Shown: positions 13,996 to 51,105, counted from the stretch's first letter. The stretch: 64,000 nucleotides of DNA from Vicinamibacterales bacterium (GCA_050183355.1 JBFXBH010000001.1:38840-102839), one strand, 5' to 3'. The notes: a model not told the origin generated them from the letters alone. Numbers and translations: made by a program.

Positions 13996-14019
13996 TCGGC
14001 TAGATCTTACTCGTCCGAT

Positions 14020-19975: not shown

Positions 19976-19979
19976 GGGC

Positions 19980-21098: not shown

Positions 21099-21130
21099 GA
21101 ATGCGTGTCTCCTTCGTCGATCAGCCGGTC

Positions 21131-32765: not shown

Positions 32766-33755
32766 CTAGGCGCGCAGCACGTACTCCGCCGACGCATCGG
32801 CGATGAGCGGCAGGTACTTCCGGCCCCACGCCACCATGTCCTTCACGCCCTCTTCAAGGGAAATCTCCGGCTCCCAGCCGAGTTCCTTCTTGATGAGCGA
32901 GGAGTCGAGCCAGTACTGCGCGTCCTCACCGGGCCGGCCCGGCTTGATCTCCACCAGATCGTCGAACGACATGCCCAGTTCCTGTGCCGTCAGCTCGACG
33001 AGGGTCCGGATCGACACGGGCTCGGCGGAACCGGCGTTGTAGATCCGGCCGAGCGGCGCCCTCTCCGCCATCAGGTACAGCGCACGGGCGAGGTCCTGCG
33101 CGTGGATGTAGCTCTTCTTCGCTCCGCCACCGCCTTCGAGCGGCAGCTTCCTTCCCGTCAGGCCGCACATCACGGCGCGCGGCAGCACGCGATAGAGCTG
33201 CTGCCCGGGGCCGTAGGCGTTCGAGGGCCGGATGATGTTCATGGGGAACTTCCGGGCGTTGAACATCGAGATGAGGTGCAGGTCGCCCGCCATCTTCGAC
33301 ACCGAGTAGGGGCTGGTCGGTGTCAACGGATAGTTCTCGTCGGCGGGCCGATCCACCGCGCCGTAGAGCTCCGAGCTGCCGACCTGGATGAAGCGCTTCA
33401 GGTAGTCACGGGTGGCAAGCCCCTCGACCATCTTGGCGAGCGCGGTGACATTGGTGTCGTAGAAGCGCCACGACTTCGTCCACGACGCGCCGTGCGCGAG
33501 CGCGGCGAAGTTGATGATCACCTCAGGCTTCTCTCGATCGAAGACCTCGAACAGCCGGTCCTGCTCGTAGACCATGTGGACCTGTTCGTAGCCATAGCGC
33601 GGGTCGCCTTTGCCGACGTCGAGCGTGAACGCCGCGGACTTCTCCGCGTTCCGGCCCACGCACACGACGCGTTCGACGCCGGTGTTCTTCAGCAGATAGA
33701 GCGCGGTGTGCACGCCGAAGGGGCCGTTGCCCCCGAGGATCATGTAACGCTTCAC
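32766..33755 (-). CDS. NAD-dependent epimerase/dehydratase (extended SDR), 329 aa
   Basis: Full ORF. ILGGNGPFGVHTALYL, GSSELYG, SPYSVSKMAGD, RPSNAYGPGQ. Confidence 0.85.
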   Translation of the reverse strand: MKRYMILGGNGPFGVHTALYLLKNTGVERVVCVGRNAEKSAAFTLDVGKGDPRYGYEQVHMVYEQDRLFEVFDREKPEVIINFAALAHGASWTKSWRFYDTNVTALAKMVEGLATRDYLKRFIQVGSSELYGAVDRPADENYPLTPTSPYSVSKMAGDLHLISMFNARKFPMNIIRPSNAYGPGQQLYRVLPRAVMCGLTGRKLPLEGGGGAKKSYIHAQDLARALYLMAERAPLGRIYNAGSAEPVSIRTLVELTAQELGMSFDDLVEIKPGRPGEDAQYWLDSSLIKKELGWEPEISLEEGVKDMVAWGRKYLPLIADASAEYVLRA

Positions 33756-33771: not shown

Positions 33772-34926
33772 CTACCGGCCGGCCGTCATGGCCGGGGCGG
33801 GCGCGATGATGAAACGGGTTCCCGCAAGCGCGGGATACTGTGCCGAGAGCCGGGAGGCGATCGCCGCGGCTGTCCCGGGCAGGAACGACATGACAACGGG
33901 CACGCCGGGCTCGAGCGCCGCCGGCGTCCGGATCGGCGCACCGGCAACCGTCTGCCCCTCCCGCGCCTCGTCCTCGTCGACGAAGCAGACGGGCGGCGTG
34001 GCGAACTGCGTGGCCATCCACAGACCGGCCATACCGGTACCGAAGATCGCGAAGGGACGATCGCCGACTTCGCGATCGATGGCCTCCATCGCCGTGCGGA
34101 TCCAGGGGAAGACGTCTGCGAGCATCTCGGTCTCGAGCGCCGGGGCCTCGCCCTTCTCCAGAAGGAGCGTGAGGCAGTTGTGTACCCAGGCCCGGCCGTC
34201 GACGGCGATGCGCAGACCGGCGCGTGCGCACGTACGCGCCAGCTGCGAGGGGCCGAAATGCGACTCGTGATCGACAACCGCGAGGTCGAAGGGGTTGCGG
34301 ACCACATCGGGCACCTGAATCAGCACGCGTCCACCCGGTGCGAGCTTCGCCGCAATCGCCGAGAGCAGCGACGCCGGATCGGGGACGTGCTCCAACGTGT
34401 GCCAGAGCACCGCGAGGTCGAAGTTGCCTTCCGGCACGGCGGTGAAGTCTCCGGACCAGAATCCACGCACCCCGGGCATCCCCTCGATCTCGGCCCTGAA
34501 CTTGTCCCCGACGTCGAAGCCGTAGAGAGACCAGCCCGGCAGCAGCGCCTGCGCGGACTTCAGCACGGCGCCATTGCCCGTGCCCACATCAAGCAGCCGG
34601 CCTGTCGCGGGCAGTCGTGGCACGCACTGCTCGATACAGTGGTACGTGCGGGGGCGCGGCGGCAAGCCTGGAGGAAACACGAGCTGCTCACGCCCGCCGG
34701 AGAGGTGGTGCGCCTGGTAGGTCGCGTAGATCCGATCGATCGCGGTCCGCTCATCCGGAGTCGGGGCCTTCTGCAGATGCCCGCACGCGCTGCACTGCCA
34801 GATCACGGCAGGCAGGTCGCAGGGCAGCGAATCGGAGGTGACCGACGCGGCCCGCAGCCCGAGCGTGCCGAGACGACCGACGGATTGCGCGCCGCAGGCG
34901 TGACAGGCGTGCGGGGTCTCACTCAT
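33772..34926 (-). CDS. Zn-ribbon SAM-dependent methyltransferase (NDP-sugar C-methyltransferase-like architecture), 384 aa
   Basis: Full ORF. CHAC..CSAC ribbon, LLDVGTGNGAVL, LAVLWHTLEHVPDP, plus an extra ~130-aa C-terminal Rossmann-like domain (FAIFGTGMAGLW). Confidence 0.8.
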   Translation of the reverse strand: MSETPHACHACGAQSVGRLGTLGLRAASVTSDSLPCDLPAVIWQCSACGHLQKAPTPDERTAIDRIYATYQAHHLSGGREQLVFPPGLPPRPRTYHCIEQCVPRLPATGRLLDVGTGNGAVLKSAQALLPGWSLYGFDVGDKFRAEIEGMPGVRGFWSGDFTAVPEGNFDLAVLWHTLEHVPDPASLLSAIAAKLAPGGRVLIQVPDVVRNPFDLAVVDHESHFGPSQLARTCARAGLRIAVDGRAWVHNCLTLLLEKGEAPALETEMLADVFPWIRTAMEAIDREVGDRPFAIFGTGMAGLWMATQFATPPVCFVDEDEAREGQTVAGAPIRTPAALEPGVPVVMSFLPGTAAAIASRLSAQYPALAGTRFIIAPAPAMTAGR

Positions 34927-35747
34927 GCGTCAGGTCCTCCGAGAACGGCGTCGCGGCAGCGCAGACAGGTGTCGCTGCACACGGTGAGCCGCGGCTGCTC
35001 GCGGATCACGCGCGCCAGCCGGTCGATGAGCGCGGGCAGCGGCGCGGCGGCAAGGTCCGCCGCGCCAAGGCCCGTGCGTGTGAACAAGTCGTCACAGTAC
35101 GGCTGAAGCCGGTCGAACCCTTTCGAGCATCCGGCCACCCGGATCCGCCGGACGCGGTCGTCGCGGTCGACGTTCCAGCGGATGAACGGCCGGCGGCCGG
35201 CCCGCTCCTCGGCCACGTGGACGGCGGTGCAGCTGGCGAGCCCGACGCCGGCGAACAGGACGAATCCCCCGCGGGCGGCGAGCCGTTCGAGCGGGAGGTT
35301 GGTGGTGTCCCACGGGTGCGGCGTCACGAGCGCGTGCGCCCCGTCGCCGTGTGCGACCCAGGAATGCCAGGGATGATCGCTCCGCTCGGTTCCGGGGAGG
35401 GCGGCCAGCGCGCGCGGCACGGCGCCCATCTTCGGGTCGATGGATGCCGTTTCACGTACCCACGGCACGCGGGGCCGGTTCCAGTGATCGTAGTACGCGT
35501 AGTCGCAGCCGTTGACGGGCGGCCGGTCGTCGGCGGGCGGCTCCCAGTTCGAGTCGAAGCAGAAGGCAGGGGCCATGACCACCGGGCATGCCCCGGCCAG
35601 ACTCGCGGCGACCGTCGCGGCGCCGCCATCAACGTATCCGAACGACCGCAACGAGGCGTGGATGACCACGGGGTGTCCGGCAACGCCGAGCCGCGCGAGG
35701 GCGTCACGGATGTCGGCCGCCGTCACGGCCGGCGACGTCGCGCTCAT
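34923..35747 (-). CDS. AAC(3)-family (Antibiotic_NAT-like) N-acetyltransferase, ~274 aa
   Basis: ORF 34923-36065 trimmed to ATG 35747 (MSATSPAV; ATGA overlap at both ends). LARLGVAGHPVVIHASLRSFGYVDGGAATV, MGAVPRALAALPGTERSDHPWHSWVAHG, VLFAGVGLASCTAVHVAEE follow the AAC(3) block pattern as I remember it. Confidence 0.65.
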   Translation of the reverse strand: MSATSPAVTAADIRDALARLGVAGHPVVIHASLRSFGYVDGGAATVAASLAGACPVVMAPAFCFDSNWEPPADDRPPVNGCDYAYYDHWNRPRVPWVRETASIDPKMGAVPRALAALPGTERSDHPWHSWVAHGDGAHALVTPHPWDTTNLPLERLAARGGFVLFAGVGLASCTAVHVAEERAGRRPFIRWNVDRDDRVRRIRVAGCSKGFDRLQPYCDDLFTRTGLGAADLAAAPLPALIDRLARVIREQPRLTVCSDTCLRCRDAVLGGPDA

Positions 35748-36952
35748 CGAAGAAACGCCGCCTCCACCTTCGCCACGGCGGCCACGATGTCGTCCGCCTC
35801 CTCGCGCGTGAAGTGCTCGTTGAAGAGGATGTTGAAGTGCTCCTCCCGCCAGGCCGTCGCGTTCGGCGTGTCCTTCGCGCCGTCCAGATACGGCCGGACC
35901 CACGGCCACTCGGAGACGACGTAGCGGTAGTCGTGGTTCAGGTCGATGCCTTCGGCCCGCACGGCGAGCGCGAACTCCTGCTTGCCGCAGGTCAGACGCG
36001 ACCGGTCGACACGGATCGGATAGTAGAACGGCGAATCGTCCCGCGACACCGGTGCCCCGACGCACGCCTGCGTCCCGGCCGCGAGCCGCTCACGCAGATA
36101 CTCGAGAAACGCCACCCTGCGGCTGATCGTCTCCGGCAGCTTCTCCAGCGACCGTATGCCGATGGCGCATGACAGCTCGTCGAGGTTGAAATTCAGCGCA
36201 GGTCCCAGGAACGTCGTCGGATCCTTGTCGTCGAAGCCGGGCTCCCAGAACGGCTTCCCGCGATCCGCGTGCGCCCGCAGACGGCGATACCAGGTCTCGG
36301 AGCGCGAGAACGTCACGCCGCCGCATCCGCCGGTGGCATGCGCTTTCCGGTACATCGTCGAAAACGCGGCGACGTCGCCGAACGTGCCGACCTGCGCGCC
36401 CTGCCAGCGCGCGCCATGCGCCTGGGAACAGTCCTCGAGGAGGATGGCGTCGTGGGCGCGGCAGAACTCCGCGATCGGCCCGGCGGCCGCCGCCTGACCC
36501 GCCGCATGCACGAGTACGGCGGCGCGCACACCGTCCTGCCACCGGGCTTCGACTTCGGCCGGCCCCGCGTTCGGCGTTCCCGGCTCGCTGTCCAGCAGGA
36601 CGGGGACCAGGTTGTTGAGGATGATGGCGCTGATGGTCCCGGGATCGGTGATCGGCGAGACGAGCACGCGGGCGCCCTTCGGCAGTTCCATGGCGGCCAG
36701 CGCGACAAAGAGCGCCGCCGTGCCCGTGCTGACGGCGTCGGCGTAGCCCGGCACGCCCATCGCCCGGACGAAGGCGTCCGTATAGCGCCGCTCGTAGGTG
36801 TCCTGGTAGCCGAAGTCCGCCTGGCGGCCGCGATAGTGCGCGAGGAACCCGTCGAGCACCTGCATGTCGTCCGGACCGACGAACGCCAGACGGGCCGGCA
36901 TGCGCCTGGTCCGCACCGGCGTGCCACCGTGGATCGCAAGCGGCGATGCCAT
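35744..36952 (-). CDS. DegT-like PLP-dependent sugar aminotransferase/dehydratase, 402 aa
   Basis: Full ORF. AVSTGTAALFVALAAMELPKGARVLVSPITDP, ILLEDCSQAHGA, FSTMYRKAHATGGCGG (PLP lysine). Confidence 0.85.
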   Translation of the reverse strand: MASPLAIHGGTPVRTRRMPARLAFVGPDDMQVLDGFLAHYRGRQADFGYQDTYERRYTDAFVRAMGVPGYADAVSTGTAALFVALAAMELPKGARVLVSPITDPGTISAIILNNLVPVLLDSEPGTPNAGPAEVEARWQDGVRAAVLVHAAGQAAAAGPIAEFCRAHDAILLEDCSQAHGARWQGAQVGTFGDVAAFSTMYRKAHATGGCGGVTFSRSETWYRRLRAHADRGKPFWEPGFDDKDPTTFLGPALNFNLDELSCAIGIRSLEKLPETISRRVAFLEYLRERLAAGTQACVGAPVSRDDSPFYYPIRVDRSRLTCGKQEFALAVRAEGIDLNHDYRYVVSEWPWVRPYLDGAKDTPNATAWREEHFNILFNEHFTREEADDIVAAVAKVEAAFLR

Positions 36953-37428
36953 CAGACGATCGCGCCCGCCTGGCGGGCCGCGCCAAGCGCCAGGTCCCAG
37001 GCGCGGATCAGGAAATCGGGAACGGCGTACCGGTCGGCGTCCTCTCGCTTCAGGAACTCGAGCGCCTGCCCTTCGTGACAGACGATGGGTTGCACGTCAT
37101 CGTAGACGGCCCAGAACACGGCCACGCTGAACAGCGGGTGGTCGGGAGGCTGATCCTCGAACCGCGCGAGCCAGTGCAGGTCGCCGAGCCTGTACTCCGT
37201 CTCCTCCAGAAACTCACGCCGCGCGGTACTCTCAATCGGCTCGTCCGGCTCGCTGTGGCCGCCGGGCAGCACCCACATGTTCGCGTGGCTGAGCCCGGGC
37301 TTGTCGTCCCTGAGCTGCATCAGCGCGGCACCGTCCCGGCGCAGCAGCGCGATGGCGGCAACACGATCCGTGCCGCGGCTCATGTCGTCGACACGGTCGA
37401 ACACGAACGTGTGCGGGGCGGTGCCCAT
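36952..37428 (-). CDS. NUDIX hydrolase, 158 aa
   Basis: Full ORF. Nudix box GGHSEPDEPIESTARREFLEETEY. Confidence 0.85.
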   Translation of the reverse strand: MGTAPHTFVFDRVDDMSRGTDRVAAIALLRRDGAALMQLRDDKPGLSHANMWVLPGGHSEPDEPIESTARREFLEETEYRLGDLHWLARFEDQPPDHPLFSVAVFWAVYDDVQPIVCHEGQALEFLKREDADRYAVPDFLIRAWDLALGAARQAGAIV

Positions 37429-38318
37429 CAGCCGCGCCGCGCCGCCTCCACGCTCCGCCTCAGTCCGTCGGCAAGCGTGGTCATCTGGAGATCGGGAAAC
37501 GCCTGGATGCGCGCGGTCACGTCGAAGTGGCGATGCGTGATCGGGTTCGCGCGGGGGGACGGCTCGATCGCGACCGGTCGGCCGGCGAGCTCCGCGACCG
37601 TGCGCGCCACCTCGGCGAATGCGTGAGAGGTGCCCGTCACGAGGTTCAGCACGCCCGAAGAACGACGCTGCAGCACGAGACGGATGATGGTTGCGACGTC
37701 CTCGATGAAGACGTGATCGCGCTGCTCCTCCCCGCCACCAAAGAGCGCGATCCTGCCGTCGACGAGCGCCGTCCTGACGAAGCGGTTCGGGCCGTAGGCG
37801 TTGTGGGTGTCGCCGGGGCCGTACAGGATCGACGGCCGCAGCAGCGCGAGCGGCGTCTTCGACGCCCGCATCGACTCGATCAGCATGCGCTCACGTGTCA
37901 TGTGCATGACGCCATGAAACGACGAGGGCTGCGCGCACGACGACTCGCGCACGGGGTTGGCGTCGTCGTGATACACGGCGTCGCTGCCGACGTGCACCAC
38001 ATGGGCCACCGGCGACGCGGCCAGCGCGGCGCACACGTGCTGCACCATCTGCAGGTTGCGCATCAGCGTCGCGATGTCGCGCCCCCGGTCCGGCGTCAGG
38101 CCGGACACGATGACGACGGCATCCTCCGGCCTGAAACGGGCACGCAGGGCCTCGACCGATGCGGGGTCGGTGAGATCGATGTCGGTTGACGCGATCGCCT
38201 CGACCGGAACGCCCGCCGCCTGGAGACCGGCCACCGTGTAGCGCCCGACGAAGCCGCGGCTGCCGAGCACGACGGCGCGCGATGGCGCGCCGGAGATGGA
38301 ATCAAGATGAGTCAACAT
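37428..38318 (-). CDS. NAD(P)-dependent sugar reductase/epimerase (extended SDR), 296 aa
   Basis: Full ORF. VVLGSRGFVGRY, GSDAVY, LLRPSILYGPGD. Confidence 0.8.
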   Translation of the reverse strand: MLTHLDSISGAPSRAVVLGSRGFVGRYTVAGLQAAGVPVEAIASTDIDLTDPASVEALRARFRPEDAVVIVSGLTPDRGRDIATLMRNLQMVQHVCAALAASPVAHVVHVGSDAVYHDDANPVRESSCAQPSSFHGVMHMTRERMLIESMRASKTPLALLRPSILYGPGDTHNAYGPNRFVRTALVDGRIALFGGGEEQRDHVFIEDVATIIRLVLQRRSSGVLNLVTGTSHAFAEVARTVAELAGRPVAIEPSPRANPITHRHFDVTARIQAFPDLQMTTLADGLRRSVEAARRG

Positions 38319-38612: not shown

Positions 38613-39914
38613 TCATGCCGACGGCAGCGTGCCGGTGCCGAGCCGCCGATGCTCGAGGCCCGCGCCACGCGCGGCGTCCGGCGTCAGCACCCCGAAGGGA
38701 TCGACGACGACCCGGCCGCGCATCGCCGACGCCAGGGTGACCGGGTCGACCTGACCGAACTCCGGCCAGGGCGTCATGATCGCCAGCAGATCCACGCCAC
38801 GCACGGCGTCGAGCGCCGTTCCGGTCCGGGTGACGCCGCGTGGCGTCTCGGCTTCGGCCACGGCGGGATCGTACGCGCGGATCTCGAAGCCGGGAAGGGC
38901 CGCGATGAGCGCCAGCGCGGGCGAGTTCTTCGTGAACTGGGTGTGCTCCTTGTAGGCAAGGCCCCAGATGCCGAGCACCGTCCCGGGAGTCCCAAGGCCA
39001 TGCGCGTACAACGTACGCAACGCCCAGTCCCGCCGATACTCGCTGTGCACCAGCCACGTCTCGACGAGGCCGGCATCCGTCCCGTTCGCGCCCGCGAGCG
39101 CCTGCACGGACGCAAGATCACGTGTGAGGTTGCCGCCGCCGATGCCCAGGCCCGGCGTGAGATACGCGTGCGGGCCGATCCGGCGGTCCAGCCGGAGCGC
39201 GGGCGCGATCTCCCGCCAGTCGGCGCCGATCGACTCGCAGACCTCCGCCAGCATGTTGGTGGTCGAGACAGACGACACCAGAAACATGTTGATACTGATC
39301 TTGCAGAGCTCGGCGCTCTCGTACCGCATCGGCAGGACCGGACAGCCAAACGACTCGAGGAACTGCCGCAGTGCCGGCGGCAGGGGCTCGGCCGGATCGG
39401 CCAACCCGACCATGAACCGCTCCGGCTCCATCGCGCGTTCGACGGCACGACCGAAGATCAGCGTCTCGACCTGGTAGTACAGCCGCGCCCCGGACGCCTC
39501 CGCCTGCTCGCGTTCCGCGCGCGTGAAACCGGGAATCACCTGACTGAGGACGACGATGGATGCACCCGGCTTCACGGCCGCGGCCACCGTCGAGACGAGC
39601 GCGCGGACGGGAGCCACATCGCTCCGGCCACGGGCGTCGGTCGGCACGTCGACCGCGATGAACACCACATCGCAGTGCCGGAGCGCGCCGGGATCCGCCG
39701 ACGCCGTGAATCGCGGCGCCGCCGTCGCGAACAGCGCATCGAGACCCGGCTCGACAAACCGGAACCGGCCAGCCGCCACGTCCGTGACCAGCACGGCGTC
39801 CGGATCGAACCCGACGGTCTCGAAGCCCTTCGCGGCCGCGGCCAGGCCGGACACCACACCCAGGTGTGTCAGACCGGCATAGCCGATGACGGGTCGCGCG
39901 GCGCCCGCCGTCAC
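38613..39914 (-). CDS. UDP-glucose/GDP-mannose dehydrogenase-family protein, atypical active site, ~433 aa
   Basis: ORF 38613-40007 trimmed to GTG 39914 (GTGA overlap). VIGYAGLTHLGVVSGL, VVFIAVDVPTD, YESAELCKISINMFL, and a C-terminal UDP-binding-like WGLAYKEHT. The canonical GxGGxCxPKD is replaced by GLGIGGGNLTRD. Confidence 0.8.
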   Translation of the reverse strand: MTAGAARPVIGYAGLTHLGVVSGLAAAAKGFETVGFDPDAVLVTDVAAGRFRFVEPGLDALFATAAPRFTASADPGALRHCDVVFIAVDVPTDARGRSDVAPVRALVSTVAAAVKPGASIVVLSQVIPGFTRAEREQAEASGARLYYQVETLIFGRAVERAMEPERFMVGLADPAEPLPPALRQFLESFGCPVLPMRYESAELCKISINMFLVSSVSTTNMLAEVCESIGADWREIAPALRLDRRIGPHAYLTPGLGIGGGNLTRDLASVQALAGANGTDAGLVETWLVHSEYRRDWALRTLYAHGLGTPGTVLGIWGLAYKEHTQFTKNSPALALIAALPGFEIRAYDPAVAEAETPRGVTRTGTALDAVRGVDLLAIMTPWPEFGQVDPVTLASAMRGRVVVDPFGVLTPDAARGAGLEHRRLGTGTLPSA

Positions 39915-40840
39915 GCCAGCATCTCCACGCCGAGGGAGCGTCCCAGTCCGTTCAGCACGCCGTTGATCCAGATGTCGTTGTCGATGTTCGATCCGCCGCG
40001 GCGGCACAGGCTGCGGAAGTAGTCGTACTCACGGACCCAGGTCGGATCCTTCTGCTCAAGCGTGACGATCTCTTCGTCGGGCTTGCCGCTCGGCAGCACG
40101 CGTCCACGGAGCACCAGCGAGGTCGGACCCCATTTGCAGAGCCCGGTGACGTGCAGGCTGCCCCGCTCGCCCACCAGGTCGAGTCCGAACGCATTCCGCC
40201 ACGAGAGCAGCGTGCCTTCCAGCTTGACCACGGGCGACGACTCCGGAAAACCCATCAGGAAGTAGTCGTACGCGGCGTTCTCATACTTCTGTACCGTCCA
40301 GACCTGCGGCGCGCCGGCGGGCCGTCCGAACCAGAAGAGCACGAGGTCGAGCATGTGGGAAGCGAGGTCCGGGATCACGCCGAGCCCCTTGTCCCGCCAT
40401 GGCGAGTTGCGCACGTCCCGCGCGGTGCCGTTGCCGTAGAACATGCGGCAGTGGTACACGCGCCCGATCCGATCCTCGTCCAGATAGCGCTTCACCGTTT
40501 CGAGATGGGGCTCGAATCGATGGTTGTAGGCCGTGTAGCAGACGGCGCCCGTGCGCGCGGCAAGGGCCTTGAGTGTCTCCAGGTCCGCATCCACGGCAGC
40601 CACCAGCGGCTTCTCGACGAGAACGTGCTTGCCGTGTGACAGGAGGTACGTCAGCAGCTCGACCTTCGGCCCGTCCGGCGTGCAGACGAGGGCGGCGTCG
40701 TAATCGCCGAGCGGCACGTCCTCGATCCGCGTCCAGGTCGCGCCGGCGGCCACCGGATCGACGGCACCGATGCCGTCCGGTCCCGCCACGGCGAGTCGTT
40801 TCCGCCCCTGGATGCCGAGACCGACGATGACGGACTTCAT
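39911..40840 (-). CDS. Gfo/Idh/MocA-family NAD(P) oxidoreductase, ~309 aa
   Basis: ORF 39911-40924 trimmed to ATG 40840 (MKSVIVGLGIQGRKR; ATGA overlap). HVLVEKPL, AYNHRFEP. Confidence 0.8.
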   Translation of the reverse strand: MKSVIVGLGIQGRKRLAVAGPDGIGAVDPVAAGATWTRIEDVPLGDYDAALVCTPDGPKVELLTYLLSHGKHVLVEKPLVAAVDADLETLKALAARTGAVCYTAYNHRFEPHLETVKRYLDEDRIGRVYHCRMFYGNGTARDVRNSPWRDKGLGVIPDLASHMLDLVLFWFGRPAGAPQVWTVQKYENAAYDYFLMGFPESSPVVKLEGTLLSWRNAFGLDLVGERGSLHVTGLCKWGPTSLVLRGRVLPSGKPDEEIVTLEQKDPTWVREYDYFRSLCRRGGSNIDNDIWINGVLNGLGRSLGVEMLA

Positions 40841-42399
40841 GCGAACCGGATGCGCTTCTCGATGGCGCTGAGCTTCGCCCGGACCTGATCCGGCGTGACC
40901 GGCGTGTTGCCGTCGTGCTCGCACGCGATGCCGGCAGCCATCGTCCCGAGGATGGACGCCACGACCGGGTCGCCGGTCGCGCGCAGCGACAGCGTGGCGT
41001 AGGAAAGCAGCGCGTCACCGGACCCGACCGGATCCACGACGTGGTCCGCGAACGCGTCGATCGTGAAGAACGAACGGATGTCGGGCGACGGCGCGCGATA
41101 CGTGATGATCCCGCGTGCGCCCATCTTGAGGATGAGCACCTTGCAGCCGGCGCGTTTGTAGAGGTCCAGCGCCAGCGGGCGCACGACAGAGTCCTGGTCC
41201 GCGAGGGAGAAGCGCGCTTCCTTCTCGTTCGGCGTGATCAGATCGAAGCCGTGGAAGTCGAGCACGTTGCCCCACCGGCTTGCGACCTGGCTGTCGGCCA
41301 CGCGCAGCGGACCCTGACGGAGGGCGGCGATGAGCGACGGAATCGTGCCACGGCCGAAGATCCCGTGGCGGAAGTCGCTGAAGACGTAGGCGTCGACCTC
41401 GGTCGCGCCGAGCTGTTCGCCGAACTGCGCGACGATCTTCTCCGAGATCGGCCGGTTGTCGACACGATCCACCTTCAGCAGGCGGTATCCGTTGGCGATA
41501 TAGGCGGCCTTGTTGGTTGTCGGACGGGTCGGATCGATGACGGGGAGACAGCGCACACCGTGCCGCTCCATCTCGCCCAGCACGAAGTCCTTGTGCGCGT
41601 CGTCGCCGAGGACGGTGGAGAACGTCACCTCCGCTCCGGCGGCGCGGATATGACGCGCGACCACGGCGGCTCCTCCGGCGAAGTCCGCCTGCTCCTCGAA
41701 CTTCACGCTGAGGGTCGGCGTCTTGCTCGTGCTCGATCCGATCGGCGTGGTGTAGCAGTAGGAGTCGACGATGGTGTCGCCGAGCACATGCACGCGCAGC
41801 CCCCGGCATTTCTCGAGCGCCTCGCGCAGGCCGTCGAAGGTCACGCCCTCCGACTCCATCAGCGCCATAAGCTTCTCGACACCGATGCTGGGAGGGGTCT
41901 CCTCGATGAAACGCGATGAGGAGTACACGACGTCGCCGGGCGTGAAGAGCACTTCCCCGCCGAAGCTCGCCAGGACATCGACCTCTTCCTGCGTCTTCGG
42001 ATGGAGCTTGCCGCTCTCCGTATACTCGAAGCCCTTGGCGAAGTAGTCCGGTTGCAGGAACGCGAGGTTATCCAGCGGTGTCGGCTGATCGTCAACAATG
42101 ACGTAGTCGACCACCTCCAGCGCCGCCAGGTTCATCGCACGCAGCTGTTGCGGCACGAACGGACGGTAATGCGCCTTGAGGATGAACGCGTCCGAGGTGA
42201 GACTCGCCACCAGCACGTCGGCCTTCGAGCGCGCGTACATCAGGTGCCGCAGATGACCCGGGTGCACGAGGTCAAACGTGCCGTGGCACATGATGACCTT
42301 CCGGGCGCGGGGCCGCGACCCGATGATCTCGCGCAGCTCCTCGCGCGTCTTGATCTTGCGCCGGAAGCGGTCGTCCGTTCCGTCGTGCATCGGAATCAT
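40837..42399 (-). CDS. Bifunctional sugar-phosphate nucleotidyltransferase (N-terminal) / PfkB-type sugar kinase (C-terminal), HldE-like with inverted domain order, ~520 aa
   Basis: ORF 40837-42465 trimmed to ATG 42399 (ATGA overlap). N-terminus: VIMCHGTFDLVHPGHLRHLMYARS (HxGH cytidylyltransferase fold). C-terminus: VLGDTIVDSY.., ITPNEKEA, DPVGSGDALLSY (PfkB signature). Confidence 0.85.
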   Translation of the reverse strand: MIPMHDGTDDRFRRKIKTREELREIIGSRPRARKVIMCHGTFDLVHPGHLRHLMYARSKADVLVASLTSDAFILKAHYRPFVPQQLRAMNLAALEVVDYVIVDDQPTPLDNLAFLQPDYFAKGFEYTESGKLHPKTQEEVDVLASFGGEVLFTPGDVVYSSSRFIEETPPSIGVEKLMALMESEGVTFDGLREALEKCRGLRVHVLGDTIVDSYCYTTPIGSSTSKTPTLSVKFEEQADFAGGAAVVARHIRAAGAEVTFSTVLGDDAHKDFVLGEMERHGVRCLPVIDPTRPTTNKAAYIANGYRLLKVDRVDNRPISEKIVAQFGEQLGATEVDAYVFSDFRHGIFGRGTIPSLIAALRQGPLRVADSQVASRWGNVLDFHGFDLITPNEKEARFSLADQDSVVRPLALDLYKRAGCKVLILKMGARGIITYRAPSPDIRSFFTIDAFADHVVDPVGSGDALLSYATLSLRATGDPVVASILGTMAAGIACEHDGNTPVTPDQVRAKLSAIEKRIRFA

Positions 42400-43397
42400 G
42401 CTCGGTCTCCGGCCAGCATCGTGAACCACGTCTTCGTGGCCTGTTCGATCGACGCGGGGTCCCACACGGGCGCCTGCCGCCAGTAGTCGATCCGCTTCAC
42501 CATCTCCGCGACACCCGCCTCGAACGACACCTGCGGCGTCCAGCCAAGCTGGCTGCTGATCTTCGTGATGTCAGCCCAGGTGCAGTCCGGCTCGCCCGGC
42601 CGCTTCGGCACGTACACGACTTCGCCGCCGAGCAGCTCGACGAGCCGGTTGACGGACTGTGGCTTCCCCGCGCCGACGTTGTAGATCTCCTGGGTGCGTG
42701 GCGTCTCGGCCGCGGCGAGAAACGCCCGCGCCAGATCGCTCGCGAACACGAAGTCGCGCGTCTGGGTACCATCGCCGACGACGGTGAACGGCTTCCCGGC
42801 CAGCTTCTGCGCGAGGAACACACCGAACACCGCGCCGTAGGCGCCGGACGTCTTCGAGCGCGGGCCGTACGCGTTGAAGATGCGAATCACGTTGACGGGC
42901 AGTTTGTAGACGTGTCCCCAGTGCAGCACCGCCTGTTCGCCCTGGTACTTGCTCAGCGCGTACGGATACTCCGGCTGGATCGGCGCGTCTTCACGCGTCG
43001 GCGTGGCCGCGAGGCCGTAGCAGGACGACGAGGCCGCGTACACGAACTTGCGCGCGCCCGCCGCGCGAGCGGCCTCGAGCGCATGCACCGTGCCCTGCAC
43101 GTTGGCCGACATGTACTCGGCGGGACGCTCGATCGACGGCACGATGTCGCCAATCCCCGCGAAGTGGATCACATACGTGACATCCGCGAAGAGCGGGTCA
43201 CCCGGCGCGATGTCGCGGATGTCCCGCACGGCGACGGACAGCCTGGCGTTGCCCTGGTGATGCGCCAGATTGTCGAGCCGGCCGCCGACGAGGTTGTCGA
43301 TGACCCGCACCGTGAAGCCGCGCTCCAGGAGCAGGTCCACCATGTGGCTGCCGATGAAGCCGGCGCCGCCTGTGACGACGGCGATCGGCTCGCTCAC
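42396..43397 (-). CDS. NAD-dependent nucleotide-sugar epimerase/dehydratase (extended SDR), ~333 aa
   Basis: ORF 42396-43487 trimmed to GTG 43397 (GTGA overlap). AVVTGGAGFIGSHMVDLLL, ASSSCYG, YPYALSKYQGE, RIFNAYGPR. Confidence 0.85.
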   Translation of the reverse strand: MSEPIAVVTGGAGFIGSHMVDLLLERGFTVRVIDNLVGGRLDNLAHHQGNARLSVAVRDIRDIAPGDPLFADVTYVIHFAGIGDIVPSIERPAEYMSANVQGTVHALEAARAAGARKFVYAASSSCYGLAATPTREDAPIQPEYPYALSKYQGEQAVLHWGHVYKLPVNVIRIFNAYGPRSKTSGAYGAVFGVFLAQKLAGKPFTVVGDGTQTRDFVFASDLARAFLAAAETPRTQEIYNVGAGKPQSVNRLVELLGGEVVYVPKRPGEPDCTWADITKISSQLGWTPQVSFEAGVAEMVKRIDYWRQAPVWDPASIEQATKTWFTMLAGDRA

Positions 43398-44395
43398 TTG
43401 AGCGCCATCGCTTTCACGGACCGCACGTTGAAGTACTTCTGATCCTCGAAGCTGTTCGGGATCTTGCCGGCCTTGAAGGCGCGGCACAGGTCACGCACGG
43501 CGTCCTCGATGGAGTGCTTCGGCGTCCAGCCGAGCACGTCGGCGATCTTCCGGGAGGAGACGTGGTACGAGCGGTTGTCGTCGCTCGGCGTGGTGACGAT
43601 CGGAATCGGCGCCTTCTCGGGGAACTCCTGCTCGACGATCCGCTTCACCTGCTCGGCCAGTTCCGAGACCGTGAAGTTCTCGTACCCGGCGTTGAACGTC
43701 TGCCCGGCGATCTGCGCGTCGGGCCGCTCCATCAGATCCACGTACAGGTCCGTGATGTCCTCGATGTGGATGTTCGGCCGCTTCTGCGTACCGCCGAAGA
43801 CGGTGATCTGGCCCTTGTTGACGGCGTGGTTGGTGAGAATGTTGACCGTCAGGTCCAGCCGCAGGCGCGGCGAGTATCCGCAGACGGTCGCGGGACGGAC
43901 GATCACCGTCGTGAACGTAGGGGACTGATACTTGAGCAGGAACGGCTCGGTGAGTCCCTTGTACTTGTTGTACTCGGTCAGCGGCAGCAGCGGATGGGTT
44001 TCCGTCACCTCGGGCGCGTCGCTGACGCCGTAGACGGAACTGCTCGACGCGTAGATGAATCGCCGCACGCCGGCGTCCACGGCCGCCTTCACCATCGGCT
44101 CGAACGCGTCGAAGTTGATCGACTTGCTGAGGTCGGGATCGAGCTCGAAGCTCGGATCGTTCGAGATGCACGCAAGATTGATGACGGTATGCGCGCCCTC
44201 GAAGATCTGGCGGAGCAGCGCAGTGTTGCGGATATCGCCCTCCACGACGGTCAGGTGCGGCTCACCGTTCGGCAGGCCGTCGGACCCGTAGAGCATGAGG
44301 TCGAACACCACCACTTCGTAGCCCTGCTTCAGCAGCTTGGGCACCAGCACGCAGCCCTTGTATCCGGCTCCACCGACGACAACGACCTTCTTCAA
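43394..44395 (-). CDS. NAD-dependent nucleotide-sugar epimerase/dehydratase (extended SDR), ~333 aa
   Basis: ORF 43394-44920; the first 175 codons are junk. The TTG start at 44395 is preceded by AGGAGG 5 nt upstream. KKVVVVGGAGYKGCVLV, SSSSVYG, TEYNKYKGL, RPATVCG. Lower GC than its neighbours by eye. Confidence 0.8.
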   Translation of the reverse strand: MKKVVVVGGAGYKGCVLVPKLLKQGYEVVVFDLMLYGSDGLPNGEPHLTVVEGDIRNTALLRQIFEGAHTVINLACISNDPSFELDPDLSKSINFDAFEPMVKAAVDAGVRRFIYASSSSVYGVSDAPEVTETHPLLPLTEYNKYKGLTEPFLLKYQSPTFTTVIVRPATVCGYSPRLRLDLTVNILTNHAVNKGQITVFGGTQKRPNIHIEDITDLYVDLMERPDAQIAGQTFNAGYENFTVSELAEQVKRIVEQEFPEKAPIPIVTTPSDDNRSYHVSSRKIADVLGWTPKHSIEDAVRDLCRAFKAGKIPNSFEDQKYFNVRSVKAMALK

Positions 44396-44430
44396 TGCGC
44401 CTCCTGTGCGGCGAAACGCCGCGTCCAACA

Positions 44431-45174
44431 CTAGAAGTCCTCGTCGAACGCCAGGCCGGCGATCGAAAAGCCAGCCGACACCGCGTCCTGCCGGAACATC
44501 TTCACCGTATCGAGCGAGAAGGCGGCGAGATCCTTCCCGATGAGCGGCAGCTTGGCCAGCACGTCGCTGGTCGCGGTGATCACGTGGCAGCCGATCTCGT
44601 CCGCCTGGATCACATTGAGCAGTTCGCGTGGGCTCGCCCAGATCAACTCGGACTGCGGCAGCGGTCGCATCAGCTCGAGTGATGTCGCCATGATCGGCAT
44701 GGGATCCCGGCCGGTATCCGCGATGCGGCCGGCAAACACCGAGATGAAACTGGCGACCGACGGTGACAACGCTGACACAACCGCCGCGACCTGCTCGGTC
44801 GTCAGCAGGGCGGTGACATTCAACTGCACACCACGCGACGCGAGCGCCGTGATCAGCGGCCCGGCAAACGCGCCCGCCGTGTTCGTCACGGGAATCTTCA
44901 CGAAGACGTTTGGTCCCCACGAGGCGATCTGGAGCGCCTGCGAGGCCATCTCCCGGAAGTCATCCGAGAACACCTCGAACGAGATCGGCCGGTCGGGCAC
45001 AACCGCCAGCATCTCGCGCGCGAAGGCCGCGTAGTCGGACACCCCGGCCTTCTTCATCAGCGTGGGGTTGGTCGTGAAGCCCTTGATGAGGGGGTTCGCG
45101 GCCATCTGGCGGATGACGGCGAGGTCGGCACCGTCGGCGAACAGCTTGACGCGCAGATCTGATGCGCTAGGCAT
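44431..45174 (-). CDS. Transaldolase / fructose-6-phosphate-aldolase family protein, 247 aa
   Basis: Full ORF. KGFTTNPTLM, VFVKIPVT (Schiff-base lysine context), NVTALLT, SVFAGRIAD. Confidence 0.85.
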   Translation of the reverse strand: MPSASDLRVKLFADGADLAVIRQMAANPLIKGFTTNPTLMKKAGVSDYAAFAREMLAVVPDRPISFEVFSDDFREMASQALQIASWGPNVFVKIPVTNTAGAFAGPLITALASRGVQLNVTALLTTEQVAAVVSALSPSVASFISVFAGRIADTGRDPMPIMATSLELMRPLPQSELIWASPRELLNVIQADEIGCHVITATSDVLAKLPLIGKDLAAFSLDTVKMFRQDAVSAGFSIAGLAFDEDF

Positions 45175-45228
45175 GACACTCCTGGGAGGTGGTGGGAATG
45201 ACGTCCGAACCGGGACGTGGAGAGCGGT

Positions 45229-45831
45229 TCACCGCGCGGTCGACTCCCACTTGGTCGCCATCTGCTGCAGGATCGGATGCGACACGAGTGCGTGCCAGAC
45301 CACGGCCTGAAACGCCTCGGAGAGCGGTGTGATGAGCGCGGGGTCCACCGTCGGGATCACGATGACCTCGTCGCCGACCCGCTTCGTGTATCCGCCGTCG
45401 CGGCCGACGATGCCGAAGACGCGCATCTGGCGGCGCTTCGCCTCTTCGAGTCCCCTGACGATGTTCGGACTGACGTTGCGCTCAAGATCGCCACCACCCA
45501 CGGACAGCACCAGCACGGCATCACGGTCGCTGGCGCGGCTGACGCGCAGATACGCCTCGAAGACCGTCTCCCATCCTTCGTCGTTGGTGCGGGCGGTCAG
45601 TTCCGACACGTTGTCCGTCGGCGCGCAGGCGTCGATTCCGGCGAGCTTGCGAAAGTCGTTGACCGCATGGCCGCAGTTCCCCGCGCTGCCCCCGACGCCG
45701 AAGAGAAACAGACGGCCGCCGCGCGCGCGCAGGTCGGCGAGCGCCCGGGCAAGCCGTTCGATTCCAGGCTGATCGATCTGTGCCGCGATCGTGGCGACAT
45801 GTTCAAAGTAGCGGGCAAGGTGATCGGTCAT
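45229..45831 (-). CDS. gmhA: SIS-domain sedoheptulose-7-phosphate isomerase (GmhA-like), 200 aa
   Basis: Full ORF. RLFLFGVGGSAGNCGHAVNDF, VLVLSVGGG, VFGIVGRDGG. Adjacent to the transaldolase and, four genes downstream, the kinase/nucleotidyltransferase. Confidence 0.75.
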   Translation of the reverse strand: MTDHLARYFEHVATIAAQIDQPGIERLARALADLRARGGRLFLFGVGGSAGNCGHAVNDFRKLAGIDACAPTDNVSELTARTNDEGWETVFEAYLRVSRASDRDAVLVLSVGGGDLERNVSPNIVRGLEEAKRRQMRVFGIVGRDGGYTKRVGDEVIVIPTVDPALITPLSEAFQAVVWHALVSHPILQQMATKWESTAR

Positions 45832-46111
45832 GATCTTGCGAATGTAGCTTCGCCCTCTCGGTTACATGACGGTGCAGACGCAACCGAATAACTGCGCTCC
45901 ATCCAAGCGCCCGTGTTCACGCGCGGGCGTTCCCGGCCGGCACTCCCGGGACGCAACAGCTGAATGTCACGGATGATTCTGTGGAACAACCGGCGTGGCT
46001 CAGATGCTCAGGATGGGCTCACACTTCCAGATAAACCCTGTCAGTGTACACCGCGCATATCCGGGGCTTCAACTGAGCGGGACGCCGCGCGGCGCGCGGC
46101 GGCGACGCCAT

Positions 46112-51087: not shown

Positions 51088-51105
51088 CGATGCGCCTTTC
51101 GGGTC

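Follow-up and report, generated by a model that had tools for sequence, protein, structure and literature searches.

On balance we consider it probable that the window (the whole 64,000-nucleotide stretch of Vicinamibacterales DNA analysed here) carries, at about 45831-32766 and, for the transketolase and methyltransferase genes, at 18866-16448, a Vicinamibacterales version of a sugar-nucleotide cassette that is both widespread and highly conserved, that the phosphatase gene has been deleted from this copy, and that the dephosphorylation (one step of the pathway proposed below) is supplied in trans. The cassette sits in an ABC-transporter-type surface-glycan locus. The first-pass annotation had presented the lack of a GmhB phosphatase as a feature of a heptose-activation pathway; comparison with related loci shows instead that the window lineage has cleanly deleted the cassette's GmhB-like gene and that the 'missing GmhB' is ordinary. 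Functions are predicted throughout from family resemblance, and literature searches found no published description of the cassette.

Gene content of the cassette

NCBI gene calls of the same contig were mapped onto window coordinates, and every gene listed by the first-pass annotation was present on the minus strand, its coordinates agreeing with those given either exactly or to within a few codons; the fusion gene, given as 40837-42399, now starts at 42390, with 42399 an alternative start codon. All cassette reading frames are intact. The operon probably begins at the 280 bp gap that precedes the SIS gene (45832..46111), the largest non-coding gap in the neighbourhood; a sigma-70 consensus scan gave no match, and the promoter placed there is presumptive. 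The first gene (45229..45831, minus strand, as are all genes below) encodes a divergent GmhA-like SIS isomerase of 200 aa (Pfam SIS_2, 43.5 bits), which scores 48.6 bits against NCBIfam gmhA (cut-off 209) and has orthologues of 51-84% identity in 47 loci. It is a single SIS domain, its 13 highest-scoring sequence matches in the PDB are without exception phosphoheptose isomerases (GmhA; 32-52 bits), and it is GmhA-like, as had been proposed, and not KpsF/GutQ-like. The GmhA loop ISTSGKS, presumably the phosphate-binding loop, aligns to SVGGGDLERNVS in the window protein. A junction of 54 bp (45175..45228), the commonest site of the HAD gene in relatives, separates it from a short transaldolase of 247 aa (44431..45174; Pfam TAL_FSA, 137.7 bits), in which the lysine context FVKIPVT can be read and which is of the TIGR02134 type (NCBIfam, 329.8 bits, above the cut-off of 281.95).

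Two SDR genes follow. The product of the first, SDR2 (43394..44395), has as its nearest PDB entries 6vo6 and 6vo8, which we take to be C. jejuni Cj1427; the match to 6vo6 is full length at 153 bits, the next best PDB match reaching 89 bits. Cj1427 is a GDP-heptose C4-dehydrogenase (PMC10680097). SDR1 (42396..43397) is a GalE/4,6-dehydratase-like extended SDR (Pfam Epimerase, 194 bits), whose best PDB matches are UDP-hexose 4-epimerases and for which all NCBIfam equivalogs fall below cut-off. The adjoining gene (40837..42390) encodes an HldE-like bifunctional fusion in reversed domain order, with an N-terminal cytidylyltransferase-like nucleotidyltransferase (rfaE_dom_II, aa 51-188, 84 bits, cut-off 181) and a C-terminal PfkB kinase (rfaE_dom_I, aa 218-531, 125 bits, cut-off 345); the nearest PDB entries are HldC 5x9q and HldA 4e84, respectively, at about 55 bits each, and the motifs HPGH, SSS, NE and DPVGxGD are invariant in the family alignment.

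The fusion gene is succeeded by genes for a Gfo/Idh/MocA oxidoreductase of 309 aa (39911..40840; Pfam, with GLGIQG and EKP motifs) and a UGDH-like NDP-sugar dehydrogenase (38613..39914; TIGR03026, 205.6 bits, above the cut-off of 189.8) without the catalytic cysteine: GGSCFPKD of UGDH 4a7p aligns to GGGNLTRD, and the cysteine position is occupied by Asn in 73/73 orthologues. Beyond these lie genes for SDR3, an RmlD/GDP-fucose-synthase-like reductase (37428..38318), a Nudix hydrolase of 158 aa (36952..37428; Pfam NUDIX), a DegT-family aminotransferase (35744..36952; Pfam, 177.6 bits) with orthologues of at least 50% identity in five loci only, and an AAC(3)-like N-acetyltransferase (34923..35747; Pfam Antibiotic_NAT, NCBIfam AAC_3 below cut-off) found, among 83 loci, only in L004 and L009. 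SDR4 (32766..33755) resembles NDP-hexose 4,6-dehydratases (Pfam GDP_Man_Dehyd, 160 bits; TIGR01181, 168 bits, below cut-off) and lies downstream of the cassette in 14-16 loci.

A split transketolase-like enzyme is encoded at 17113..18866 (Pfam Transketolase_N, Transket_pyr and Transketolase_C), its N-terminal half at about 18045-18866 and its C-terminal half at about 17113-18047, with start codons not fixed; its best PDB match is the split transketolase 6yaj (178 bits). Two DegT-family aminotransferases (18866..21338; ORFs 19980-21338 and 18866-20017, Pfam 366 and 342 bits) adjoin it in the window, L004 and L075, and on its other side is a SAM methyltransferase gene (16448..17176; Pfam).

Distribution and conservation

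The fusion protein is encoded at at least 566 genome loci in at least eight phyla by homologue search, the best 80 of these showing 62-89% identity and including Acidobacteriota, Verrucomicrobiota, Planctomycetota, Proteobacteria, Myxococcota, Omnitrophota, Elusimicrobia and others. Gene order in related loci, taken from tblastn, is SIS, GmhB-like HAD, transaldolase, two SDRs, the reversed-order HldE-like fusion, Gfo/Idh/MocA, cysteine-less UGDH-like protein, SDR and, in some, Nudix, with split transketolase and methyltransferase as frequent extra members. Among the 64 loci whose upstream sequence extends for 6 kb or more, used for the upstream census, SIS, HAD and transaldolase occur together in 37 and SIS and transaldolase without HAD in three; downstream, 63 of them have the Gfo gene (directly after the fusion gene), 60 the UGDH-like gene and 56 SDR3. 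Transaldolase accompanies SIS in 40 of the 43 loci with SIS within 10 kb. All three upstream genes are absent within 10 kb in 15 of the 64 loci, so they are not certainly obligatory partners of the fusion enzyme, and some loci keep HAD and fusion with no SIS or transaldolase nearby. For seven cassette genes compared between the window and L004, dN/dS is 0.08-0.15 (about 0.1) at dS 0.66-1.0, which indicates that the cassette genes other than the lost one are under purifying selection.

In 26 of 83 loci the transketolase gene (55-84% identity) lies downstream of the cassette and in the same orientation. The methyltransferase gene (MT1) adjoins it in 24/24 loci where the flank reaches that far, in the order TKN-TKC-MT1 or MT1-TKN-TKC in 24 of the 26; in the remaining two the sequence stops at the transketolase. 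The transketolase gene stays with the tailoring genes and the methyltransferase even at loci whose transaldolase, SIS and HAD genes have another location or run in the opposite direction.

Loss of the phosphatase gene

Where SIS and transaldolase lie within 10 kb upstream of the fusion gene, a HAD gene stands beside them in 37 of 40 loci, and in 36 of the 40 this adjacent HAD is GmhB-like. The commonest layout (25 of the 36) places a phosphatase gene of about 180 aa between SIS and transaldolase; in L003 a PGP-like HAD takes the place of the GmhB-like one. The cassette HADs carry the motif FxDRDGV and, in most members shown, CxH...CxCRKP; they pass HAD-IIIA domain cut-offs and have the heptose-1,7-bisphosphate phosphatase family as their best NCBIfam match, at 131 bits and below cut-off. 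In the window, L004, L006 and L009 the SIS-transaldolase spacing is 30-75 bp, and neither tblastn nor HMM found a HAD remnant in any of the four. The HAD-less lineages' genomes are GCA_050248235.1 and JBEBFY01.

That the window holds no HAD phosphatase, as the first-pass annotation had noted, was borne out by several searches. Pfam detected no HAD or other phosphatase family in about 60 window reading frames (GC3-selected ORFs and a few long ORFs in alternative frames). Two HAD types from related loci, used as tblastn queries, gave nothing (best E 0.18), and neither did an HMM of 46 cassette HADs when all six window frames were scanned with its filters turned off (best E 3.8; positive control 5e-89). 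Precomputed Pfam calls contained no HAD in the 10 kb beyond each window end, which brought the coverage to about 82 kb of one 133 kb contig of a MAG. A relocated copy was not found with a cassette-HAD query; of the few NCBI-sourced matches one was traced, to another assembly. The Nudix gene, present in 32 of the 64 loci, also occurs in HAD-containing ones and is therefore not a HAD substitute. In an NJ tree drawn without branch support one HAD-less clade unites the window with L004 and L006, and L009 branches apart from it, a pattern suggestive of two or more losses. Since the remaining genes are under purifying selection, the phosphatase activity is probably provided in trans, and dephosphorylation would then be due to a phosphatase, of the GmhB/HisB type or another, whose gene lies elsewhere.

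Predicted pathway and size of the sugar

Our working model is that the transaldolase would make or supply a ketose phosphate, which the GmhA-like SIS enzyme would convert to an aldose phosphate; the PfkB domain of the fusion would phosphorylate the anomeric carbon, a HAD phosphatase (in the window lineage, one acting in trans) would remove the distal phosphate, and the cytidylyltransferase-like domain would yield an NDP-beta-sugar. Remodelling may then involve the Cj1427-like SDR, the second SDR, the Gfo/Idh/MocA and cysteine-less UGDH-like enzymes and the RmlD-like reductase and, in the window genome, the aminotransferase and N-acetyltransferase as well. As for the sugar itself, we slightly prefer a heptose from sedoheptulose-7-P (S7P), at a little under an even chance, to an octose made in the fashion of LmbR/LmbN, whose chance is smaller and still considerable.

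The full heptose scenario is somewhat less likely than not: transaldolase and split transketolase would together run a mini pentose-phosphate shunt of their own (2 F6P to S7P and X5P) feeding a true GmhA, and NDP-D-glycero-D-manno-heptose would be tailored as in the Campylobacter capsule. The SIS, kinase and nucleotidyltransferase domains and the relatives' HAD do best match GmhA, HldA/HldE, HldC and GmhB, and to this extent the isomerase/kinase/nucleotidyltransferase logic of heptose activation seen by the first-pass annotation holds. Yet the SIS, HAD and fusion scores are 23-74% of the curated equivalog cut-offs for GmhA, GmhB and HldE, so S7P is not established as the substrate, and the GmhA loop is remodelled. 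The transaldolase exceeds a curated transaldolase cut-off, both transaldolase and transketolase genes are conserved members of the system, and loci with HAD and fusion but no nearby SIS or transaldolase look as if housekeeping enzymes could replace these. Against this, we know of no transaldolase in a characterised heptose cluster, and literature searches found none. In the transketolase, moreover, the canonical THAGLTVGEDGASHQ is replaced by GVGAGVGYSLLGSTHH: His is changed to Gly and Asp to Leu in 26/26 orthologue matches where the stretch aligned, with the same replaced motif as the window in 25 of them. From yeast and E. coli transketolase we take these two residues to serve acceptor and phosphate binding. 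Judged by these residues, the window enzyme is not a standard pentose-phosphate enzyme; because they are replaced and because the gene travels with the tailoring genes and not with transaldolase, its role in S7P supply, which had been proposed for it, is doubtful, although the gene is indeed a member of the conserved system. The proposed likeness to Campylobacter tailoring is supported by SDR2, nearest to 6vo6 (presumably the GDP-heptose C4-dehydrogenase Cj1427), but no RmlC-type C3/C5 epimerase, as employed by the Campylobacter pathways, was seen in the window, which speaks against it.

Possible, though on the unlikely side, is the corresponding octose scenario, in which the transaldolase joins ribose-5-P to a C3 unit taken from either F6P or S7P, giving octulose-8-P (LmbR-like), SIS isomerises it (LmbN-like), and kinase, phosphatase and nucleotidyltransferase activate it; SDR, UGDH-like, Gfo and aminotransferase enzymes would act like LmbM, LmbL, LmbZ and LmbS, and the product would be an amino-deoxy-octose for a surface glycan. 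To our knowledge, and as far as we have searched, LmbR/N/K/P/O is the only characterised pathway with a transaldolase besides GmhA-like, GmhB-like, kinase and nucleotidyltransferase genes, and its lincosamide enzymes LmbR, LmbN and LmbK build an octose, not a heptose. The transaldolase-SIS-HAD trio is tightly conserved, the core enzymes have diverged strongly from the heptose equivalogs, LmbL, LmbZ, LmbM and LmbS have window counterparts at the family level, and a UGDH-like enzyme that invariably lacks its cysteine is in keeping with a two-electron role and not with uronic-acid formation. As of 2015, the nearest homologues outside the lincosamide clusters came from acidobacteria for CcbK (49%) and CcbZ (40%) and from myxobacteria for CcbN (39%), and both groups carry the cassette. 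The likeness to Lmb/Ccb, however, rests on families and descriptions and not on sequence comparison, and several details differ. CcbR (222 aa) is nearest to an actinobacterial housekeeping-type transaldolase and is taken, by description, as a different subfamily from the TIGR02134-type window enzyme; CcbP is galactokinase-related whereas the cassette kinase is of the PfkB type; and CcbO is a 'nucleotidyl transferase family protein', unlike the cytidylyltransferase-like domain here. The aminotransferase lies outside the conserved core, and the nearest characterised relative of SDR2 acts on a heptose.

We think it improbable that HAD-less lineages dispense with dephosphorylation, the nucleotidyltransferase taking the bisphosphate and the NDP-sugar keeping a distal phosphate that is retained in the glycan or serves as leaving group for downstream oxidoreductases. 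Adenylyltransferases can turn heptose-1,7-bisphosphate into ADP-heptose-7-P, about 82 kb lacks a phosphatase while the genes stay under selection, and HAD loss coincides with the lineage-specific aminotransferase and AAC(3)-like pair in three of the four HAD-less loci. HAD is, however, kept in 37 of 40 relatives; fusion proteins of HAD-less and HAD-containing loci are 74-89% identical and share the invariant motifs, so a change of substrate is not indicated; and phosphatase redundancy is documented (PMC10680097, PMC9454879). That the pathway is broken and its genes decaying remnants is very improbable: one canonical step lacks a gene in the locus, but frames and fusion catalytic motifs are intact, dN/dS of 0.08-0.15 at dS 0.66-1.0 between two HAD-less genomes contradicts it, and three diverged genomes have the HAD-less state in common.

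Relation to known systems

Viral and eukaryotic NDP-heptose enzyme sets without a phosphatase have been described (PMC11461863). Deletion of gmhB in E. coli is leaky, with a near wild-type phenotype, because HisB and other phosphatases substitute (PMC9454879). Supply of gmhB from outside a heptose cluster is already known in C. jejuni, whose capsule heptose cluster relies on the GmhB Cj1152, encoded elsewhere (PMC10680097). Both bacteria, and the viral and eukaryotic enzyme sets, are precedents for the in-trans phosphatase supply that we propose for the window lineage.

Organization and conservation of the gene cassette

The heptose-type module of the window is one copy of a conserved cassette of about 10 genes, kept at 60–90 % protein identity across at least eight phyla. 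With few exceptions the genes of the window, whose G+C content is 69 %, are on the minus strand, and this holds for every gene of the module. When the deposited gene calls were mapped onto the window, the module comprised genes for a SIS protein (45229–45831), a transaldolase (44431–45174), the short-chain enzymes SDR2 (43394–44395) and SDR1 (42396–43397), a nucleotidyltransferase (NT)/kinase fusion enzyme (40837–42390), a Gfo/Idh/MocA protein (39911–40840), a UGDH-like protein (38613–39914), SDR3 (37428–38318) and a Nudix protein (36952–37428), followed by a DegT aminotransferase (35744–36952), an AAC(3)-like acetyltransferase (34923–35747), a methyltransferase (33772–34926) and a 4,6-dehydratase-like SDR (32766–33755). 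For every gene that the first-pass annotation described, Pfam and NCBIfam agree with the identity proposed there. From the transaldolase gene through the acetyltransferase gene most neighbours overlap or abut, so that this stretch looks like one operon; upstream of the SIS gene there is a 280-bp gap, and a scan there found no consensus promoter or terminator sites.

A collection with one genome per species holds at least 566 relatives of the fusion protein. Their best 80 share 62–89 % identity and belong to Acidobacteriota, Verrucomicrobiota, Planctomycetota, several proteobacterial orders, Myxococcota, Omnitrophota, Elusimicrobia and others; in a plasmid collection the same domain architecture was found only at 33 % identity. 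Comparison of the window proteins with 83 related loci by tblastn revealed a recurrent gene order, namely SIS, a GmhB-like phosphatase of the HAD family (hereafter HAD), transaldolase, SDR2, SDR1, fusion enzyme, Gfo/Idh/MocA, UGDH-like and SDR3, with a Nudix gene often, and a 4,6-dehydratase-like SDR and aminotransferase genes sometimes, following SDR3. In 26 of the 83 loci a split transketolase and a methyltransferase are encoded downstream on the same strand, and these genes are orthologues (49–84 % identity) of those at 18866–16448 in the window. Gene content upstream was counted in the 64 loci with at least 6 kb of sequence upstream of the fusion gene: 37 have the SIS, HAD and transaldolase genes, only three have SIS and transaldolase without HAD, and in 15 no member of this trio is within reach. 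One related locus, L080, from the cultured Azospirillum rugosum IMMIB AFH-6, holds part of the cassette. The downstream genes are retained more uniformly (Gfo/Idh/MocA in 63, UGDH-like in 60 and SDR3 in 56 of the same 64 loci). The cassette itself is of the NDP-heptose pathway type but forms a variant of its own, and literature searches on transaldolase with gmhA, gmhB or octose found no published description of it. A local variation was seen in one related locus, L001, where the Gfo/Idh/MocA gene after the fusion gene appears fused to a methyltransferase domain (11557–12756, 399 aa); on a second contig, L002, which encodes an identical fusion protein, a plain 310-aa Gfo/Idh/MocA gene follows.

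Core enzymes: fusion protein, transaldolase and SIS protein

According to Pfam and NCBIfam the fusion enzyme combines a PfkB kinase with a cytidylyltransferase-like domain, and the catalytic motifs of both are intact; the motifs HPGH (HxGH), SSS, the PfkB NxxE (NE) and DPVGxGD (GxGD) are invariant in 14 diverse members. The NT domain (aa 51–188) precedes the kinase domain (aa 218–531), the reverse of HldE, in which the kinase is N-terminal and the adenylyltransferase C-terminal, and the protein scores 141.7 against the HldE model NF008454 (cut-off 521), 124.7 against HldE domain I (cut-off 345) and 84.2 against domain II (cut-off 181.5), so that no score reaches half of its cut-off and the lowest is about a quarter of it. 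The HldE-type motif (F/L)xxGxSTT reads FTPGDVVYSSS in the NT domain of the fusion, and among solved structures HldC and HldA come closest, each at about 55 bits. The transaldolase passes TIGR02134 (329.8 bits, cut-off 281.95) and its sequence contains the Schiff-base lysine context, FVKIPVT.

The SIS protein is a single-domain protein of 200 aa matched by Pfam SIS_2 alone. Its best 13 sequence matches in the PDB are all phosphoheptose isomerases (GmhA), at 32–52 bits, and it falls below the GmhA model TIGR00441 (48.6 bits, cut-off 209.45) and three further GmhA models (30–45 bits, cut-offs 265–320). We take the catalytic and metal-binding residues of GmhA to be His, Glu, Gln and His, and its S-T-S-G-x-S loop to bind phosphate. 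In HMMER alignments of the SIS protein with GmhA the first His is kept, Glu is replaced by Asp and Gln by Thr, and the region of the C-terminal His is unaligned; the GmhA loop ISTSGKS is replaced by SVGGGDLERNVS, which is six residues longer, and this pattern of residues and loop is kept in the family. The first-pass annotation had named a KpsF/GutQ-type isomerase as the identity that would overturn its reading of this protein; that identity is ruled out by the one SIS domain, the lack of CBS domains and the nearest solved relatives, so that by domain content and PDB matches the protein is GmhA-like.

Absence of the GmhB-like phosphatase

The observation, made from the sequence alone, that the window encodes no HAD-like protein was borne out by searches. 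Scanning about 60 of its reading frames with Pfam turned up neither a HAD nor any other phosphatase family, two HAD types taken from related loci had no tblastn match in the window, and an HMM built from 46 cassette HADs and run unfiltered against all six frames of the window found none, with a positive control of 5e-89. A HAD-IIIA gene is likewise missing from the 10 kb past either end of the window, and is present in 36 of the 40 loci that have both the SIS and transaldolase genes. In the relatives the protein is a GmhB-like HAD-IIIA phosphatase with an FxDRDGV motif and, in most members shown, CxH...CxCRKP; it passes the HAD-IIIA domain cut-offs TIGR01656 and TIGR01662 and scores 131.4 bits against its best NCBIfam match, the heptose-1,7-bisphosphate 7-phosphatase model NF006506 (cut-off 178).

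The absence of GmhB from the window is accounted for by a lineage-specific deletion: the gene is normally part of the cassette. Three other loci (L004, L006 and L009) are also without the HAD gene, and in these and in the window the SIS and transaldolase genes are 30–75 bp apart, with no HAD remnant between them. In a neighbour-joining tree of four concatenated cassette proteins, for which no branch support was computed, a HAD-less clade made up of the window, L004 and L006 stands beside the HAD-containing locus L005, and the HAD-less L009 lies in another clade beside the HAD-containing L012; these two separate positions suggest at least two losses of the HAD gene. A comparison of two HAD-less loci, the window and L004, gave dN/dS of 0.08–0.15 (dS 0.66–1.0) for all seven cassette genes tested, and these low values argue for continued selection on the pathway once the phosphatase gene had gone.

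The simplest reading is that the phosphatase step would be supplied in trans, by analogy with characterized systems: the capsule heptose cluster of C. jejuni depends on the GmhB Cj1152 from outside the cluster (PMC10680097), an E. coli gmhB deletion mutant is close to wild-type since HisB and other phosphatases fill in (PMC9454879), and viral and eukaryotic NDP-heptose enzyme sets contain no phosphatase (PMC11461863). A search for a cassette HAD relocated within the same metagenome-assembled genome found none, but this is a weak test: among the best 120 homologues one of the few NCBI-sourced matches was traced, and it belonged to another assembly. Replacement by a different HAD has a candidate in the related locus L003, in which a 247-aa phosphoglycolate-phosphatase-like HAD with a DIDGTL motif (5841–6584) lies upstream of the SIS gene instead of the GmhB-like HAD and appears to serve as its non-orthologous substitute. 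Three further explanations were ruled out: a hidden or fragmentary HAD gene in the window by the tblastn, unfiltered HMM and Pfam searches, a HAD fused to an adjacent gene by the lengths of the SIS, transaldolase and fusion proteins, which match those in HAD-containing relatives, and a stand-in role for the Nudix protein by its co-occurrence with HAD in many loci and its absence from L004. Of the genes in such pathways, the comparative data show that for the phosphatase to be the easiest to dispense with and to replace; a heptose-type pathway without one is a local gene loss with known precedents and alone opens no new question.

A further feature of the HAD-less loci is that in three of the four a DegT aminotransferase and AAC(3)-like N-acetyltransferase gene pair is found just downstream of the cassette (window 34923–36952; L004 13781–15800; L009 13058–14706). 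Elsewhere in the 83 loci the AAC(3)-like acetyltransferase is absent.

Tailoring enzymes

SDR2 aligns along its full length with PDB entry 6vo6 (153 bits), and other SDRs score far lower; going by its distinctive molecule name, we take this structure to be the C4-dehydrogenase Cj1427 of C. jejuni. The UGDH-like protein contains all three Pfam domains of its family and passes TIGR03026 (205.6 bits, cut-off 189.8), and the catalytic Cys of GGSCFPKD aligns with an Asn that is found in all 73 cassette orthologues. This replacement would exclude the four-electron oxidation to a uronic acid by the standard mechanism, and the enzyme is predicted to be unable to form a uronic acid in that way. No RmlC-type C3/C5 epimerase domain was detected in any scanned ORF of the window.

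In the split transketolase, Pfam matched the ThDP-binding, pyrimidine-binding and C-terminal domains across the two halves, which score 204 and 166 bits against the curated equivalog (cut-off 488), and the C-terminal half is nearest to the split transketolase of Carboxydothermus hydrogenoformans (178 bits). The canonical stretch THAGLTVGEDGASHQ is replaced by GVGAGVGYSLLGSTHH in the window, and the pattern G-x-G-[GA]-G-x-x-Y-S-x-L-G-x-T-H-H is shared by the window and 25 of the 26 orthologue hits with an aligned stretch. Within THDS...GEDG, His is replaced by Gly and Asp by Leu in the window, and both residues are replaced in all 26 aligned orthologue hits; in the yeast and E. coli enzymes this His and Asp presumably bind the phosphate and C2-hydroxyl of the aldose acceptor. 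The transketolase genes adjoin the tailoring genes and the methyltransferase gene even where the SIS, HAD and transaldolase genes are absent or on the opposite strand. Because of the altered acceptor residues and this position, we treat the transketolase-like protein as a predicted tailoring enzyme that would form C–C bonds. The first-pass annotation had linked it to the supply of sedoheptulose-7-phosphate (S7P); the comparative data do place it in the same system, but gene position and the replaced His and Asp speak against the pentose-phosphate role.

The surrounding glycan locus

The cassette lies in a large glycan locus with a Wzm/Wzt-type ABC transporter, GT2 glycosyltransferases and several methyltransferases. 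The transporter is encoded at 11865–14019 by genes for a Wzm-like ABC-2 permease and a Wzt-like ATPase, and the latter has a weak match to the Wzt C-terminal carbohydrate-binding domain (18 bits, below the cut-off); this points to ABC-transporter-dependent export in which a chain-terminal residue would be recognized. Carbamoylation of the glycan is suggested by a NodU-like carbamoyltransferase (Carbam_trans_N and Carbam_trans_C) at 50908–53595, with a 65-aa DUF5989 ORF ahead of it. Immediately to the left of the window, on the contig that holds it (L085, 20328–22527), are genes for a NeuB-like protein of the sialic-acid-synthase family and a NeuC-like UDP-GlcNAc 2-epimerase, which extend the glycan locus, so that the same locus may also make a nonulosonic acid. 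The housekeeping gene smpB (54397–54903) stands between sugar-epimerase and glycosyltransferase genes of a glycan region that otherwise looks continuous.

Seven paralogues of a module of about 480 aa are also encoded, six on the minus strand (2838–4280, 4436–5824, 7030–8454, 8592–9950, 30159–31514 and 46631–47995) and one on the plus strand (49435–50877), with 34–38 % identity to the reference copy and no Pfam or PDB sequence match. An AlphaFold model of the module (pLDDT 79, pTM 0.82) has a predicted GT-B fold like those of UDP-GlcNAc 2-epimerases and the MshA and OleD glycosyltransferases. Three of the seven carry extra C-terminal domains, giving proteins of 627–890 aa, and homologues of the module were found only in L003, L004, L006 and one or two more loci. 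A second unannotated domain, marked by GPW(L/V)xExGFELLYW, extends the C terminus of the 890-aa GT-B fusion protein (1608–4280) and recurs in the adjacent ORF (604–1607); it gave no family match.

Product and significance of the cassette

The pathway logic of the first-pass annotation, a self-contained heptose-activation module in which transaldolase and transketolase supply S7P, holds in part; the self-supply of S7P and the heptose product are unproven and partly contradicted. As to the sugar made, a heptose is our first candidate, at slightly below an even chance, and is favoured by the Cj1427-like SDR2; an octose has a serious but smaller chance, and something else accounts for the remainder. 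A more specific proposal, which we put forward tentatively and consider less likely than not, is that the cassette makes no ordinary heptose and represents, for surface glycans, a widespread equivalent of the lincosamide octose pathway, with the transaldolase making octulose-8-phosphate from ribose-5-phosphate; possibly the cysteine-less UGDH-like enzyme would convert the terminal carbinol of the NDP-sugar into an aldehyde, after which the non-canonical split transketolase would add a C2 ketol unit, giving amino sugars of 8–10 carbons in bacteria of many phyla.

The hallmarks of the cassette are a domain-swapped HldE-like enzyme, a built-in transaldolase, a cysteine-less UGDH-like protein and a transketolase-like protein with an altered acceptor site, and it merits biochemical follow-up. 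Should an octose or a chain-extended sugar be made, a higher-carbon sugar chemistry so far known from one antibiotic pathway would reach the surfaces of abundant soil and freshwater bacteria. If it is an NDP-β-heptose derivative, the carriers would be additional sources of ALPK1-type agonists.

Comparison with known systems

With the GmhA/HldE/GmhB pathway to NDP-heptose the cassette shares a SIS isomerase, a PfkB anomeric kinase, a HAD-IIIA phosphatase (in the relatives) and a cytidylyltransferase-like NT, in a reaction order that we infer to be the same. It differs in that its SIS, fusion and HAD proteins all fall far below the curated cut-offs, that the domain order of the fusion is reversed and its NT motif altered, that a transaldolase is built in, that the window lineage is without a phosphatase gene, and that no cassette protein reaches the cut-off for HldD, the ADP-heptose 6-epimerase.

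The capsule GDP-heptose system of C. jejuni (Cj1423–1425, the GmhB Cj1152, Cj1427, Cj1430 and Cj1428) is also a second, dedicated heptose-type pathway inside a surface-glycan locus with GmhB outside the cluster, and the SDR nearest to 6vo6 is here too followed by an SDR reductase. The C. jejuni pathway has no counterpart to the transaldolase, Gfo/Idh/MocA, cysteine-less UGDH-like and transketolase-like genes of the window (PMC10680097). Conversely, the window kinase is of the PfkB type, its NT is HldC-like and no RmlC-type epimerase is encoded in the window. In C. jejuni, by contrast, the kinase HddA is a GHMP-family enzyme and the NT is one of the GDP-forming NTP transferases, and the α anomer is made.

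The transketolase shares its two-chain architecture with the split transketolase of Carboxydothermus hydrogenoformans (PDB 6yaj/6yak), but the THAGLTVGEDGASHQ stretch of the latter is replaced.

The octose pathway of the lincosamides lincomycin and celesticetin (LmbR, LmbN, LmbP, LmbK, LmbO, LmbM, LmbL, LmbZ and LmbS) is, to our knowledge, the only characterized pathway in which a transaldolase is combined with GmhA-like, GmhB-like, kinase and NT enzymes. LmbR makes octulose-8-phosphate from ribose-5-phosphate and either fructose-6-phosphate or S7P (PMC5854111), LmbN, LmbP, LmbK and LmbO activate the octose, and LmbM, LmbL (a dehydrogenase), LmbZ (an NAD(P) oxidoreductase) and LmbS (an aminotransferase) tailor it (PMC12945683; PMC4351081). 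The two systems differ in kinase family, probably in NT family and apparently in transaldolase subfamily, as judged from their family descriptions, and in context, an antibiotic there and a surface glycan here, where a split transketolase and a methyltransferase are additional. CcbR is a 222-aa transaldolase nearest to a Cellulomonas enzyme and CcbP is related to galactokinases, so parts of the two pathways are not orthologous. In 2015 the nearest non-lincosamide homologue of CcbK was a Solibacter usitatus protein (49 %), that of CcbZ an uncultured acidobacterial one (40 %) and that of CcbN a Sorangium one (39 %) (PMC4351081 supplement). In both systems SDR, UGDH-like, Gfo/Idh/MocA and DegT enzymes follow sugar activation, and the lincosamide functions R, N, K (in relatives only), M, L, Z and S all have family-level counterparts here.
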